Shown here piece by piece: positions 43,458 through 46,643 of a DNA stretch of 64,000 nt. Where the stretch lies: the NCBI GenBank assembly GCA_035703635.1, contig DASSXV010000010.1, forward strand, positions 1-64,000, written 5' to 3'. Position numbers and translations under genes: made by a program. Every line of letters begins with the position of its first letter. Positions within the stretch are counted from its first letter, which is position 1. The notes under the pieces are model-generated. The model made no database searches. It saw only the letters and a list, made by a program, of their open reading frames with translations, and was not told the DNA's origin. This stretch comes from Trueperaceae bacterium. GTDB taxonomy: Bacteria > Deinococcota > Deinococci > Deinococcales > Trueperaceae.

Positions 43458-44060
43458 TCAGACTGGGCGCCGGTTACTGATGGCGCGGCCTAGCGTAACC
43501 TCGTCTGCGTACTCTAGGTCCCCGCCTACGGGAAGACCGTACGCGATACGGCTGACCGCAACGCCTGAGGACCCGAGTTGGCGCGCCAAGTAGTGCGCCG
43601 TTGCCTCGCCTTCCACGGTTGTCGAGGTGGCGAGGACGACCTCGCGCACGCCAGCTAGGCGCTGTTGAAGGGCGGCGATGGTCAGTTGCTCAGGTCCGAT
43701 GCCGTTCATGGGGCTGAGGGAGCCGTGCAGCACGTGATACAGCCCCTGGTACTCGCCTGAGCGCTCGATGGCAAGCAAGTCAGCTGGTTGTTCGACAACG
43801 CACAAGAGGGCGCGGTCGCGGCGCGTGTCTGCGCACACGGCGCAGCAGTCAGACCCGCTGCTCATGACGTTGAAGCAGAGCGGGCAACGCTCGAGGCCCG
43901 TCTTAGCCTCAACGAGGGCGGCGGCTAGCGCCCTCACTTCCTCTTCAGGGCGGTTGAAGAGGTAGAACGCCAGGCGCTGAGCGCTCTTCGGCCCGATGCC
44001 AGGCAGGCGCCCCAGCTCGCGGATGAGCGTAAGGAGCGCCGTTGGGAAGCGCACGCTCAT
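43458..44060 (-). CDS. recR: Recombination mediator RecR
   Basis: LPGIGPKSAQR, Cys4, YHVLHG, EGEATA, SRIAYGLPVGGDLEYAD. Confidence 0.97.
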   Translation of the reverse strand: MSVRFPTALLTLIRELGRLPGIGPKSAQRLAFYLFNRPEEEVRALAAALVEAKTGLERCPLCFNVMSSGSDCCAVCADTRRDRALLCVVEQPADLLAIERSGEYQGLYHVLHGSLSPMNGIGPEQLTIAALQQRLAGVREVVLATSTTVEGEATAHYLARQLGSSGVAVSRIAYGLPVGGDLEYADEVTLGRAISNRRPV

Positions 44061-44109
44061 GCAACTACCGCGCTTAGGTGAGTACGCCGGCGCCGCGTGT
44101 TCTGCTGGC

Positions 44110-44421
44110 TCAGAGCATGCCCCCGAGGCCGCCCATGCCGCCCATGGCAGCGCCCATCTCCTTCTCCTGCAGTTCCTTGGCCTTGCGCTGAGCGTCGCTT
44201 ACGGCGGCCGTGACGAGGTCTTCGAGCATCTCGACGTCTGACGCGTCGACGACCTTGGCATCGATGCGCACCTTGGTGACGGTGCCGTCGCCCGTTGCCT
44301 CTGCACGCACCAAGCCGGCGCCCGCCGAGCCCTCGACGGTCATGCTTGCCAGGCGCTCTTGCGCCTCGTTCACTTTCTGCTGGGCGCGTTGGGCTTCTTT
44401 CATCAGCTTCTGGATGTTCAC
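44110..44421 (-). CDS. ybaB: YbaB/EbfC nucleoid-associated protein
   Basis: LMKEAQ, GSAGAGLV, EMLEDLVTAA; dnaX-ybaB-recR synteny; SD GAGGAG. Confidence 0.95.
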   Translation of the reverse strand: MNIQKLMKEAQRAQQKVNEAQERLASMTVEGSAGAGLVRAEATGDGTVTKVRIDAKVVDASDVEMLEDLVTAAVSDAQRKAKELQEKEMGAAMGGMGGLGGML

Positions 44422-44472: not shown

Positions 44473-45138
44473 TCAGGCGTCGTCGTTGTCCAACTCGGCG
44501 CCGGTTGGGTCATCGTACCCGTCAGCGAAGGCCGCTTCTGTTGCGCTCTGTGCGTCGCTCTCGTCCCCGGTGTCAGCAGCTTGGCGCAGCGGAACGACCT
44601 CGATGACTTTGCCGGGGAAGAGCGCGACCAACTCCGCGAACGCCTTGCCCTGCGGCGTGTCAGTACTGACGGTCTTCGGCGCGAACGCAGGCTGAGTGGC
44701 CGGTGGCTTGCTCCCGCCGCGCGGTGGGCGCTCGCCGGCTCTGCTCGGCGCTGGTCGCGCGGCAGGCGCTGCGCGGCTGCTCGAGCTCGCCTGAGTGCTT
44801 GACTGGCTCGGCGTCGCCAGCTCGGGTGACTCATCGTCGACCGGCGCCCCGCCACCCCCCGCGGGGAGTTCATCGCTCCCGTCGTCCGCCCACAGGTCCC
44901 CAGTGGCGCCACCGAATGACGAGTCGACGTCCTCCGGAATGAAGTCCGTGACCTCGGCCGGAGCGCCGCTTGGGCGCGCAGCTGGCGGGGGCGTGGCCGG
45001 CGCAGGTTGCGGAGCTTGGGCTACCGGGGCGGGGGTTGGCCGCGGCCGGCGAGGCGCAGGGTCGAACGCGGCCGCCTCGCTGGTTCGCCCTTCCGGTTCG
45101 CTCGCTTGCGGAGCGGGAACTGCCCGCCCCGTCAGGCT
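44473..45138 (-). CDS. dnaX: -1 frame continuation of dnaX (tau-specific C-terminal part, 221 codons)
   Basis: Frame checked codon by codon as open from 45156 to TGA 44475-44473, with no usable own start; Pro/Ala-rich linker, then GKAFAELVALFPGKVIEVVPL and an acidic tail; fills the dnaX-ybaB gap. Confidence 0.75.
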   Translation of the reverse strand, partial: SLTGRAVPAPQASEPEGRTSEAAAFDPAPRRPRPTPAPVAQAPQPAPATPPPAARPSGAPAEVTDFIPEDVDSSFGGATGDLWADDGSDELPAGGGGAPVDDESPELATPSQSSTQASSSSRAAPAARPAPSRAGERPPRGGSKPPATQPAFAPKTVSTDTPQGKAFAELVALFPGKVIEVVPLRQAADTGDESDAQSATEAAFADGYDDPTGAELDNDDA

Positions 45139-45144
45139 TTTTTT
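45109..45144 (-). other. Putative -1 frameshift signal
   Basis: A AAA AAA (45144-45138), spacer GCCUGA, hairpin CGGGGCGGG-CAGUU-CCCGCUCCG (45131-45109). Confidence 0.7.
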
Positions 45145-46643
45145 GGACCACCACCGCTAGTGGCGCCCGTGACTTTGGCGCGCGCGTTGCCTGCGGGTCC
45201 GTCGATGACCAACTCGTACCCGGGGCCAGCCACCTCAGCCACTAGCTTCGTGAACTCGTCAAGGCGCTGGAGCAGTTGCTTGTGGTGGAACTCGTTCTCT
45301 GCGGGGAAGATCACGCGGATGACCGTGTCTGCTTGCTCAACGCGTGCTGGGGCGAGGAAGGCCTTGAGGCGCACGTCGGCGCGGCTCCTCACGGCATGCC
45401 ACGAGAAGGCGCCGGCCGGGGCGCCCGCCATGGGCGGCGCCTCGACGGCGGGCGCCGCCTCGGCGGCTGGCTCCGCTGGCTTATCCCTCTCCCCGACGTC
45501 ACGGGGCGCCGCGCTCGGGCCCTCGACCTTCTTGGGCTCCGCACGCTTCGGTGCCGCGGTCTGCTGAGCTTCATGCGTGGCGGCGGCCGGCGCTGTGAAC
45601 GCGGCGGGCACGTTGCCGCTAAGCGCATTGCGCGCCTTGATGAGAGCGACCTCGAGTGAGTAGAGGTCGTCGTGCCTGATGAAGCGCTCCTGCTCGTCAT
45701 CGAGCGCGTGGAGTAGTCGCAGTAGTTCCGTGTCCGTGAGCGCGAGCTGCGACTCGCCAGCTAGTTGGGCGTGCAGCGCCGTCCGCAAGGTGCGCGCCAA
45801 CTGCTCGGCGAGGGTGCGCGGCGCGAAACCCGCCCGGTAGAGGCTGCCCGCCTGCTCGAGGAGACCAGTCAGGTCGCCGGTAGCCAAGGCTGCCGCCATG
45901 GCAAGCAGCCGCTCGTGAGGTGGTAGTCCGAGCGCGTCCTCCGTGTGTTGCAGCGTCACAGGCTCGCCGGTGGCTAGGAGGCGATCGAGGAGCGACTCTG
46001 CATCGCGCATGCCGCCGTCCGCACTGCGCGCCACTAGGTCGAGGGCGGGCGCCTCTGCGGCCACGCCAGCGCCCTCCGCGAGCCGCGCGAGTTTCCCGAC
46101 GATCTCGCCGTCAGTCAAGCGCCGGAAGCGGAAGTGCTGGCAGCGCGAGAGCACCGTCGGCGGCAGGCGCTCCGGTTCAGTCGTCGCGAGGATGAACATC
46201 AGACCTGGCGGCGGTTCCTCGAGCGTCTTGAGCAGGGCGTTAGCTGCGGCTTTGCTGAGCATGTGCGCCTCGTCGAGGATCCAGACGCGCGTGCCGCCGC
46301 GCATGCTCGCGAGCATGGCGTGTTCGCGCAAGTCGCGCACGTCCTCGACGGAGTTGTTGGAAGCCGCGTCAAGCTCGATGACGTCCGGGTGCGAACCGGC
46401 CTGGACGAGGCGGCACGACTCGCAGACACCGCACGGGCGTTTCTCGGCGGGGGCCTCACAGTTGACGGCCATGGCGAGGAGTCGCGCGCTGGTCGTCTTA
46501 CCAACCCCGCGCGGCCCAGAGAATAGGTAAGCGTGCCCGACTCGCCCGCGCCTGATGGCGGAAGTCAGGACGTCCTTGACGTGGTCCTGCCCCACGACCT
46601 CGTCGAACGTGACCGGCCGTGCCCGTTGGTAAAGAGCCGACAT
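45132..46643 (-). CDS. dnaX: DNA polymerase III subunit gamma/tau (frame-0 product, 503 aa)
   Basis: ALYQRARP, GPRGVGKT, Cys4, ELDAASN, ILDEAHML, LKTLEEPP, SRC, GGMRDA. Confidence 0.97.
   Translation of the reverse strand: MSALYQRARPVTFDEVVGQDHVKDVLTSAIRRGRVGHAYLFSGPRGVGKTTSARLLAMAVNCEAPAEKRPCGVCESCRLVQAGSHPDVIELDAASNNSVEDVRDLREHAMLASMRGGTRVWILDEAHMLSKAAANALLKTLEEPPPGLMFILATTEPERLPPTVLSRCQHFRFRRLTDGEIVGKLARLAEGAGVAAEAPALDLVARSADGGMRDAESLLDRLLATGEPVTLQHTEDALGLPPHERLLAMAAALATGDLTGLLEQAGSLYRAGFAPRTLAEQLARTLRTALHAQLAGESQLALTDTELLRLLHALDDEQERFIRHDDLYSLEVALIKARNALSGNVPAAFTAPAAATHEAQQTAAPKRAEPKKVEGPSAAPRDVGERDKPAEPAAEAAPAVEAPPMAGAPAGAFSWHAVRSRADVRLKAFLAPARVEQADTVIRVIFPAENEFHHKQLLQRLDEFTKLVAEVAGPGYELVIDGPAGNARAKVTGATSGGGPKKA

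Follow-up and report, generated by a model that had tools for sequence, protein, structure and literature searches.

Recoding of dnaX and the Trueperaceae locus

Recoding of dnaX is known to proceed by two routes. In E. coli, the frameshift signal in dnaX consists of an A_AAA_AAG heptamer, an upstream SD-like element, and a downstream stem-loop, as outlined in PMC3711429. In Thermus thermophilus, transcriptional slippage on a run of nine adenines makes gamma, according to the account that PMC1088944 gives of Larsen et al. (2000). A reversed organization, in which recoding is needed to make tau, was described by Antonov et al. (2013, NAR; PMC3711429) and restated by Atkins et al. (2016; PMC5009743). 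The reversed taxa discussed in the main text of PMC3711429 are Chlorobi (Chloroherpeton and two Chlorobium species), whose runs range from A7 to A10 and for which transcriptional realignment was favoured. Five Deinococcus-Thermus species belong to that data set, and the main text does not mention "Truepera," with further genera listed in a supplementary figure. We found no report of a reversed dnaX in Trueperaceae in the literature covered, which took in the main text of PMC3711429.

The sequence examined here (the window) is a 64,000-nucleotide stretch of Trueperaceae DNA. Its dnaX gene and all other features described below lie on the minus strand, and their coordinates are mostly given in the direction of reading. 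The zero-frame open reading frame (ORF) of dnaX (46643..45132) encodes 503 amino acids followed by TGA, and its default product would be gamma-like. In both the ORF list and the sequence, the ORF ends in CCA AAA AAA GCC TGA, so that the protein terminates in GGGPKKA. This short product comprises clamp-loader ATPase domains I to III, a linker, and a DnaX_C domain. Pfam searches matched it to PF13177 (DNA_pol3_delta2, E = 9.9e-47) and PF22608 (ATPase lid, E = 1.3e-10). The gamma3 domain (PF12169) scored 23.0 bits, just below its 24.4 cut-off, and DnaX_C (PF20964, residues 422 to 480) scored 18.3 bits, below a cut-off of 26.2 that relatives exceed. In a search of the PDB, the E. coli gamma/tau chains were matched at an E value of 1e-67, while the last 100 amino acids of the short form obtained only chance-level matches (E > 0.5) to PDB sequences. 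The ORF is a member of the DnaX clamp-loader family and contains the AAA+ clamp-loader ATPase module.

The 3' end of this ORF holds the elements of a putative recoding cassette. The slippery heptamer A_AAA_AAA (45144..45138) lies in X_XXY_YYZ phase relative to the zero-frame codons CCA AAA AAA. It is followed by a 6-nt spacer (45137..45132) made up of GCC, the final sense codon of the zero frame, and the stop TGA. A stem-loop of 9 bp with a 5-nt loop (45131..45109), the presumed 3' frameshift stimulator, begins at the first base past the stop. The hairpin, CGGGGCGGG-CAGTT-CCCGCTCCG, includes one G-U pair and folds with a computed energy of -16.9 kcal/mol. The stem starts 6 nt past the heptamer, within the 5 to 9 nt spacing of -1 frameshift sites, and the spacer of E. 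coli dnaX is likewise 6 nt. A G-rich SD-like stretch, GCGGTGGTGGT (45157..45147, encoding Gly-Gly-Gly), is situated 2 to 12 nt upstream of the heptamer and is a candidate 5' stimulator. Judged by its sequence, the site has both the X_XXY_YYZ heptamer and the downstream structure expected of -1 frameshift sites of the dnaX type. A first-pass annotation of this DNA had proposed the A7 run, the 6-nt spacer, and the 9-bp hairpin with its single G-U pair; these elements, and the coordinates that it assigned to the A run, the hairpin, and the end of the -1 frame, all held on rechecking.

Runs of this length are exceptional in the genome: the A7 run is one of only five A/T runs of 7 in 2.9 Mb, and there are no longer ones. 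About 10% of lysine codons are AAA (1,150, versus 10,050 AAG), and both tRNA-Lys(CUU) and tRNA-Lys(UUU) are encoded, unlike the situation in E. coli, which has a single tRNA-Lys. The presence of both tRNAs weighs against a ribosomal frameshift. The energy of the hairpin is by itself weak evidence, because 45 of the 2,134 34-nt windows of the gene fold equally well or better. When loci were ranked against all windows within their own gene, the median rank of the hairpin was 7%, with 3 of 18 loci at 23 to 40%, a rank that is unremarkable given how GC-rich these genes are.

Since a missing A in the assembly would produce the same picture, the first-pass annotation had left room for a sequencing error. 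Positions 45138 to 45144 are crossed without gaps by contigs from two DNA runs of different studies and from two RNA-library runs, all of which have A7 and no indel. Some RNA contigs leave other parts of the stretch uncovered, from which we conclude nothing. The A7 run is the true DNA sequence, and an assembly error is excluded.

The arrangement corresponds to that of a reversed dnaX, in that the short ORF ends at the putative shift site and the -1 ORF encodes the tau-specific C terminus. As in the reversed genes presented in the main text of Antonov et al. (PMC3711429), the ORFs overlap, the shift is to -1, the stop comes straight after the site, and the short form results from standard decoding. 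The inverted logic noted in the first-pass annotation is supported at this locus but is not new, since reversed dnaX genes of other taxa were already described (PMC3711429 and PMC5009743). The layout is known from other bacteria, and it is for this family that we found no earlier report.

The reading that we favour, with a probability of about 0.78, is that a programmed -1 ribosomal frameshift yields tau and that the default product is gamma-like. Under normal decoding, ribosomes would read CCA AAA AAA GCC, stop at TGA, and release the 503-amino-acid DnaX. A fraction of them would pause with two tRNAs on A_AAA_AAA, where the stem-loop located 6 nt downstream would hold them, probably together with the upstream SD-like G-rich stretch. 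These ribosomes would slip back by one base and translate 221 further codons, and the efficiency of frameshifting would set the tau:gamma ratio. That the event takes place on the ribosome, and how efficiently, is what we infer. In comparison with E. coli, the gene, the direction of the shift, and the combination of heptamer and stem-loop are the same, with a candidate SD-like element upstream, and the A_AAA_AAG heptamer itself occurs in 31 relatives, with A_AAA_AAA in the window. In Trueperaceae, unlike E. coli, it is the zero frame that stops and the shifted frame that would lead to tau, and the site is located past DnaX_C.

Conservation of the cassette across the family

A search of 128 Trueperaceae genomes recovered dnaX in 122, from which 112 loci were taken and 99 could be classified. 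One locus, apparently in frame, was left out because a run of Ns (X in the translation) occupies exactly this site. The full cassette, composed of a heptamer in phase, the one or two sense codons after it, a zero-frame stop, and a stem-loop, is present in 79 of the 99 classifiable species genomes; the other loci consist of 2 further variants of the -1 type and 18 in which the frames are continuous. The persistence of the stop and the hairpin in these 79 genomes, together with the covariation of the stem, answers the comparison with relatives that the first-pass annotation had suggested.

The heptamer of the cassettes is A_AAA_AAA in 42 cases, A_AAA_AAG in 31, C_CCA_AAA in 5, and G_GGA_AAA in 1. 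A canonical heptamer in phase lies inside the 0/-1 overlap at 80 of the 81 loci of the -1 type. The length of the A run is much less constant, reaching A7 to A9 at 44 of these loci (A9 at only 2) and amounting to no more than 6 (runs of 4 or 6) at the remaining 37, which keep the cassette nonetheless. It is the phase in which the heptamer lies that has been conserved, and not the length of the run. The spacing is equally regular, with one sense codon before the stop in 73 of the 79 cassette loci and two in the other 6, and with the hairpin starting 0 to 2 nt past the stop in 78.

Covariation within the stem was assessed with a covariance model built from seven sequences, which finds 61 of the cassettes at E ≤ 0.01, and on an alignment fitted to the structure of that model. 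Pairs were counted on this alignment because MAFFT put the 3' arms out of register in loci with differing loop lengths, and the MAFFT cassette alignments were rejected for this purpose. Among the 61 cassettes of the model-fitted alignment, 98.5% of cells are paired, and 5 of the 7 pairs have changed on both sides. Compensatory cells number 27, as opposed to 5.3 in shuffled alignments, none of which (0 of 500) scored as high, and the slid controls were 37 to 75% paired. This is the pattern of a structure under selection. At the fourth pair of the stem, G-C, G-U, and A-U alternate; the change on the 3' side is synonymous (GCC to GCT), and GCT is the rarer alanine codon in this genome.

Across the 79 loci, pairing of the 17 nt upstream of the heptamer with an anti-SD consensus, which may not be the host's own sequence, has a median energy of -8.4 kcal/mol. 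Measured with the same consensus, SD-like pairing falls in the top 10% of the in-phase positions of its own gene at 65 of the 79 loci. The assembly did not yield a 16S 3' end for this genome. The G-rich SD-like stretch also codes for conserved glycines.

These features bear on the chief alternative, that the A7 run is lengthened by one A through slippage of RNA polymerase and that the resulting A8 mRNA encodes tau, the reverse of the situation in Thermus thermophilus. In the alignment, Thermus-like dnaX genes from the same order have their A8/A9 run at this site, slippage on the A9 run of Thermus makes gamma (PMC1088944), and slippage is also what Antonov et al. (2013; PMC3711429) favoured for reversed dnaX genes with poly-A sites. 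At the 44 loci with A7 to A9, one added A would give the same protein, but the 37 loci with runs of 4 or 6 adenines retain the cassette all the same, and slippage does not require the X_XXY_YYZ phase that has been kept. Moreover, ribosomal events are stimulated by elements of the kind present here, namely a stem that covaries and begins 6 nt downstream, and a candidate SD-like stretch. In the RNA-library contigs the main form is A7, but this counts only weakly against slippage because contigs drop minor variants, among which a minority of A8 transcripts could hide. Overall, we regard slippage as unlikely, though it is the only alternative that retains appreciable weight. Heptamers that lack poly-A, the covarying stem, and the candidate SD-like element all point to the ribosome, and the same three features distinguish Trueperaceae from the Chlorobi cases as these are presented in PMC3711429.

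The -1 frame extension and the tau tail

The -1 frame continues from 45138 to 44473 for 221 codons plus TGA (stop at 44475..44473), across the junction GGPKK-SLTGR. The 502 residues shared with the short form and the 221 of the extension add up to a long product of 723 amino acids, so that translation bears out both the stop-free interval and the product size given in the first-pass annotation. The openness of this frame alone is weak evidence, because 554 of 20,000 mononucleotide shuffles of the extension are also without a stop.

The extension has three conserved stretches. An acidic/aromatic motif, DFIPEDVDSSFGGATGDLW (44946..44890), lies in the middle, with I67, P68, D70, V71, and W83 invariant in 12 sequences. 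Toward the end, the extension reads AFAELVALFPGKVIEV, and the tail motif at this end, AFAELVALFPGKVIEVVPL (LFPGxVxEV; 44643..44587), has F174, P175, and G176 invariant in 16 sequences. It is followed by an acidic C-terminal tail with GYDD (44586..44476), in which all 12 aligned sequences share G207, Y208, and D209. A tblastn search with the extension found homologs in the -1 frame of relatives at E values from 1e-66 to 1e-4. A search for related loci with a 12-sequence alignment of the extension gave 11 loci, 8 of which were already in the set. The tail profile matched in an open -1 frame at 57 of the 79 cassette loci, gave no match at 19, and matched in the +1 frame at 3, one of which has Ns in the stretch.

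The extension matched no Pfam family, even at E ≤ 10, and no PDB sequence at E ≤ 10. It shares homology with the C-terminal tail of the tau proteins of other families in the order, where this part follows the same site without a change of frame, and the counterpart of the tail motif in the in-frame Thermus-like tau is LFGGRL or LFKARL. The Taq tau_c chain 4IQJ_M runs from the DnaX_C domain across the KK site and linker and includes the tail. A predicted complex between a 72-amino-acid tail piece and the C terminus of Pol III alpha scored 0.72, versus 0.00 for the best of three controls, although the score may reflect memory of 4IQJ; in the benchmark, 58 of 80 solved complexes attained that mark, as did 2 of 110 mismatched pairs. 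The predicted interface involves residues 8 to 36 of the piece, with at least 79% of contacts agreeing between runs and a partner pLDDT of at least 59. Since a like complex has already been solved, the prediction shows likeness and not binding. On this modeling, the LFPGxVxEV tail is predicted to contact the C-terminal domain of Pol III alpha, in line with the resemblance to a tau C terminus that was noted at the outset.

Could the extension instead be translated separately, by re-initiation past the dnaX stop, as a free tail peptide? Public gene calls are split in this way: of 79 cluster representatives with a match to the tail profile, 77 are 37 to 245 amino acids long and have the match at their C-terminal end, and just 2 are long (710 and 784 amino acids). 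The short calls may, however, be fragments or calls from internal starts. In the window, as the first-pass annotation had claimed in saying that the -1 frame lacks its own start, there is no ATG, GTG, or TTG in this frame before codon 170, which is itself inside the tail motif, and the frame opens a mere 22 nt ahead of the zero-frame stop. The tail is also fused to DnaX in in-frame relatives and in other families, and we judge two separate proteins to be quite improbable.

Hardly credible is the last alternative, a homopolymer sequencing or assembly indel or a real mutation that cost the gene its tail and left only the short form: a one-base loss from A8 would look identical in a single assembly, and the ORF is continuous in 18 of 99 relatives, but A7 recurs in the contigs of four data sets (two of DNA, from independent studies, and two of RNA), the same split is found in 81 of the 99 species genomes with four heptamer types, the -1 frame tail is open and conserved across genera, and a dead tail would not be expected to retain a motif that resembles, in the modeling, an alpha-binding one. 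The choice that the first-pass annotation posed between an error and a programmed event can be settled against the error, with the cassette recurring in relatives. Its central claim, that gamma is the default and that tau needs a -1 shift, gains support from the family-wide cassette and the homology of the tau tail.

Proposed polarity of recoding within the order

Thermus-like genomes, which belong to the same order, have their A run at the same aligned place, a few residues past the last strand of DnaX_C, and the tau-specific part is in both cases the same linker and a tail with an LF(G/K/P)xR/K motif. In contrast to Trueperaceae, these genomes encode tau in the zero frame, have a run of A8/A9, and lack a stop directly after it; in Trueperaceae the run is A7 or shorter and sits in heptamer phase, the stop comes one codon later and is followed by a hairpin, and tau lies in the -1 frame. 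The site was also considered as a Thermus-type slippage site (about nine adenines and a zero-frame tau), a description that its A7 run, its -1 frame tau, and the rarity of A9 in the family do not fit. The short product is the counterpart of the Thermus gamma, because it keeps DnaX_C and the Thermus slippage run is at the same aligned position. The designation gamma is thus appropriate insofar as it denotes the short default form but not in the sense of an E. coli-style cut after domain III.

One recoding site just past DnaX_C may have been kept across the order while its mechanism and polarity changed, a scenario to which we give even odds. Thermus-like families have A8/A9, an in-frame tau, and gamma by slippage; Trueperaceae would have the ribosomal -1 cassette, gamma by default, and tau by frameshift; Deinococcus-like genomes have no signal; and at least five lineages of Trueperaceae would later have re-fused the frames. 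If true, this would be a natural series in which to ask if bacteria require gamma in addition to tau, and in what proportion. Essential tau, which couples polymerases to the clamp loader, would in Trueperaceae rely on a purposeful translational error, and the composition of the replisome would then follow the frameshift rate. The 79 natural cassette variants, with four heptamers and many stems, and the 18 in-frame relatives provide material on which to test the rules that -1 frameshifting follows in bacteria of high GC content, and the same natural variants bear on the long-standing question of the purpose of gamma.

The DnaX of Trueperaceae seems to have been annotated wrongly, as a short gene plus a hypothetical protein, because nearly all of the tail-matching representatives are short orphan ORFs and because no long fused relatives of the tail were found with the whole extension or its residues 155 to 221 as queries, the latter being weak evidence. 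Downstream of dnaX, the operon continues (43458..44421) with ORFs of 103 amino acids (44421..44110) and 200 amino acids (44060..43458), which from gene order and sequence we take to resemble ybaB/ebfC and recR.

Anatomy of the dnaX site

The zero frame of dnaX in the window (46643..45132, minus strand, as are all features of the site) is 503 codons long and ends ...GGT GGT CCA AAA AAA GCC TGA. Its A7 run, in the phase A_AAA_AAA (45144..45138), is followed directly by one sense codon (GCC) and the TGA stop, and directly after the stop lies a hairpin, CGGGGCGGG-CAGTT-CCCGCTCCG (45131..45109), which forms a stem of 9 bp, one of them G-U, with a folding energy of -16.9 kcal/mol. Starting at the last A of the run, the -1 frame continues through 221 codons without a stop before reaching a TGA (44475..44473), and it contains no ATG, GTG, or TTG before its codon 170. 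The first-pass annotation had described this hairpin, an extension without its own start, and a 723-aa product (502 + 221), and all of its coordinates are correct by sequence and translation.

Taken singly, neither the open frame nor the hairpin is rare in 70%-G+C DNA: 554 of 20,000 shuffles of the extension matched it in having no stop, and the hairpin energy is equaled or bettered in 45 of 2,134 windows of dnaX. The A7 run itself is unusual in this genome. Its 2.9 Mb contain A/T runs of 7 at only five places and no longer ones, and AAA makes up about a tenth of lysine codons (1,150 AAA versus 10,050 AAG). The other four runs lie outside the window (G000 contigs C15:106694, C40:22497, C57:2824, and C66:59614), the one on C15 being flanked by inverted GC-rich arms (GCGGCC/GGCCGC).

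An assembly error at the homopolymer, for which a check of A7 versus A8 had been proposed, is ruled out. When contigs from public sequencing runs were aligned to 44700-45600, four crossed the A7 run without an inserted or deleted letter: two from DNA runs of different studies (X2, a single 22,370-nt contig, and X4) and two from RNA-library runs (X15, covering 44702-45368, and X16, covering 44940-45436). A7 is the main form in both DNA and RNA libraries; contigs drop rare variants, and minor A8 transcripts are compatible with this result. Run X4 also holds a 373-nt wastewater contig of another organism (record 12) that matches the window only at 45122-45158, with 3 differences over these 37 nt, and whose flanks match the reverse complement of a relative's sequence (L004). 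Because this match is confined to the cassette (in-phase heptamer, one or two sense codons, stop, and stem-loop), the cassette is the best-conserved stretch of dnaX DNA between species. Downstream of dnaX are a 103-aa and then a 200-aa open reading frame (43458-44421, minus strand), which in order and sequence resemble ybaB/ebfC and recR, the usual operon partners of dnaX.

Distribution of the cassette in Trueperaceae

Related loci carry record titles naming Truepera, Trueperaceae, and Deinococcota. An initial 30 loci were drawn from 41 related genomes; in many of these species, tblastn located the homologous extension in the -1 frame with respect to dnaX, and in 18 loci the heptamer, single sense codon, stop, and stem follow one another as in the window. 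Across the family, dnaX was found at an E value of ≤1e-60 in 122 of the 128 genomes searched, a tally that includes one unpublished genome (G107) absent from the loci analyzed. Nine further matches at contig ends were left out of the 112 loci analyzed, and 13 of the 112 were unclassifiable (9 run off the contig end, 3 contain N in the gene, and 1 is stopped early, at codon 61). Among the remaining 99, the cassette contains A_AAA_AAA in 42 (one codon precedes the stop in 36 and two in 6), A_AAA_AAG in 31, C_CCA_AAA in 5, and G_GGA_AAA in 1; two more are -1-type variants (one with its heptamer 27 nt before the stop and one with G_AAA_AAA), and 18 have a continuous reading frame. The cassette is present in 27 of the 31 genera counted. 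The proposed check for a conserved A run, stop, and hairpin in relatives finds the cassette in 79 of 99 loci; what is kept is the phase of the heptamer, and A runs vary from 4 to 9 among the 81 -1-type loci.

The -1 extensions have a median length of 194 codons (range, 74 to 473). A profile of the 72-aa tail of the extension matches in the open -1 frame of 57 of the 79 cassette loci, finds no match in 19, and matches in the +1 frame in 3: L157, which has Ns within the stretch, L131 (genome G094), where the match is weak (E = 8e-4), and L117 (G050), which has an A9G run. The +1 placement in L117 and L131 could stem from a different shift, from another indel, or from misassembly of the low-complexity linker. 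In another locus, L137 (G071), dnaX carries a TGA in frame near codon 61, with the remainder of the gene and the -1 tail intact; a sequencing error is one possible cause among others. Six loci of one genus, g36 (L077-L079, L129, L139, and L141), have an A8 run (CCA AAA AAA ATA GCx TGA); two sense codons precede their stop, the spacer is 9 nt, and the stem is stronger, at about -23 kcal/mol. In the same genus, L119 has G_AAA_AAA.

In a FastTree phylogeny built on residues 1 to 355, with six loci from other families as the root, in-frame genes are nested in cassette-bearing clades at five places. At least six changes are needed, a count in which gains and losses are not distinguished; the simplest reading would be a single gain and then five re-fusions.

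Ribosomal frameshifting or transcriptional slippage

The site is most likely a programmed -1 ribosomal frameshift lying at the Thermus slippage position, with a signal like that of E. coli dnaX in its three parts but reversed in polarity. The E. coli signal is described with the same elements, i.e., a heptamer, a stem, and an upstream Shine-Dalgarno (SD)-like sequence (PMC3711429). Addition of one A by RNA polymerase would yield an identical protein, and a share of such slippage is possible at the window's A7 run, whose position is homologous to the known slippage site of Thermus. However, 80 of the 81 -1-type loci carry a canonical heptamer in phase, and across the 81 the longest A run measures 4 nt (6 loci), 6 nt (31), 7 nt (36), 8 nt (6), or 9 nt (2). 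Also arguing against slippage, the stem begins 0 to 2 nt past the stop in 78 of 79 loci and covaries.

Covariation was assessed with a model built from seven close sequences, which found full-length cassettes in 61 loci (E ≤ 0.01). In this alignment, whose fit to the model leans towards structure, 98.5% of 396 cells pair, versus 92.1% in shuffles; both sides have changed in 5 of 7 stem pairs, and there are 27 compensatory cells, versus 5.3 in shuffles (0 of 500 shuffles as high). Sliding the partner by 1 to 3 columns reduced pairing to 37 to 75%, with at most 3 compensatory cells. Stem pair 4 alternates among G-C, G-U, and A-U between loci, its 5' change replacing Gly with Glu in the -1 frame and its 3' change being synonymous (GCC to GCT, the rarer codon).

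Pairing upstream of the heptamer also points to the ribosome, but is no more than suggestive. The 17 nt upstream pair with an anti-SD consensus, which may differ from the host's own sequence, at a median of -8.4 kcal/mol, and 65 of 79 loci rank among the top 10% of positions within the gene concerned; the same stretch codes for conserved glycines, and a search of this assembly found no 16S 3' end.

The two products and their precedents

The short form contains the clamp-loader ATPase module (Pfam) and matches E. coli gamma/tau structures (E = 1e-67), with a weak DnaX_C match (PF20964, residues 422-480; 18.3 bits, below the 26.2 cutoff). DnaX_C scores above the cutoff, upstream of the tail, in the in-frame relatives L016 (residues 439-531, 27.9 bits), L028 (31.5 bits), and L030 (67.9 bits), indicating that the short form differs from E. 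coli gamma, which is cut after domain III. The proposal of gamma by default and tau by recoding is supported, with the correction that this gamma is not of the E. coli style.

Thermus-like relatives of the same order have a single reading frame of 515 to 613 aa. Seven of the eight loci examined (L028, L030, and L043-L047) have an A8 or A9 run a few residues past the last DnaX_C strand, and L042 lacks one there. This run aligns to the Lys-Lys site of Trueperaceae, and 3' of it the proteins have a Pro-rich linker and the motif LFGGRL or LFKARL, of which LFPGKVIEV in the window's tail is the counterpart. In T. thermophilus, slippage on A9 at this site makes gamma (PMC1088944). The crystallized Taq tau_c chain 4IQJ_M spans DnaX_C, the Lys-Lys site, linker, and tail. 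Deinococcus-like loci (L024, L026, L027, and L029) are in frame without a run at the site, and their length of about 760 to 800 aa fits that of D. radiodurans DnaX, given as 786 aa (PMC11219805). The tau-like C terminus noted for the extension is homologous to in-frame Thermus-like tails after the same site.

A complex between the 72-aa tail and the final 330 residues of the genome's own DnaE1, predicted with own alignments (A6 and A5) supplied, reached a score of 0.72 over three runs (the highest of 3 controls was 0.00), with contact agreement of at least 79% and partner pLDDT of at least 59; 58 of 80 solved complexes reach the mark for this score, as do 2 of 110 mismatched pairs. The predicted interface joins tail residues 8-36, which hold the motif, to residues 238-280 and 306 of the alpha piece. 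Since the structure of a similar complex has been solved (4IQJ), memory may account for the score, and the prediction shows likeness, not binding. Domains, site alignment, tail motif, and predicted complex together support a long form that is tau and a short form that is a Thermus-type gamma.

Genes whose short product comes from standard decoding and tau from recoding are a known kind. Antonov et al. (PMC3711429) report 17 in 12 genera, 12 of them with A7-A10 runs, naming in the text Chloroherpeton thalassium and two Chlorobium species, and Atkins et al. (2016; PMC5009743) describe tau from frameshifting in fewer bacteria, with the gamma stop directly past the shift site. Transcriptional realignment is favored for the former set, whereas a ribosomal shift is most likely in Trueperaceae. 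The PMC3711429 data set includes five Deinococcus-Thermus species; "Truepera" is absent from its main text, and the genus list in a supplementary figure may include it. A full-text search for Truepera or Trueperaceae with dnaX returned only unrelated papers. The first-pass observation is confirmed and its reading is supported, with correction on the nature of the short form and on prior report of the layout: the inverted logic was previously reported in other taxa. The principle is not new, and Trueperaceae dnaX is a well-populated natural series of moderate interest.

The gene also appears to be split in public gene calls. Of 79 cluster representatives matching the tail profile (E ≤ 0.001), 77 are 37 to 245 aa with the match at the C-terminal end, some perhaps being contig-edge fragments, and only two are long (710 and 784 aa); homologous-protein searching found no long fused relatives of the extension, which is weak evidence.

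A second conserved motif lies mid-extension (44890-44946, minus strand; DFIPEDVxSSFGGATGDLW, with EELPADFWD in other genera). Acidic and aromatic, it has no family match and might dock a further partner of the replisome. DnaE1 ends ...E(T/V)PF in the window's genome (L050:3209-6493, contig C83, minus strand) and, among loci L052-L072, in Trueperaceae and Thermus-like relatives, an ending that resembles the C-terminal tip of SSB proteins; that of Deinococcus-like relatives ends otherwise (...GGMRA).
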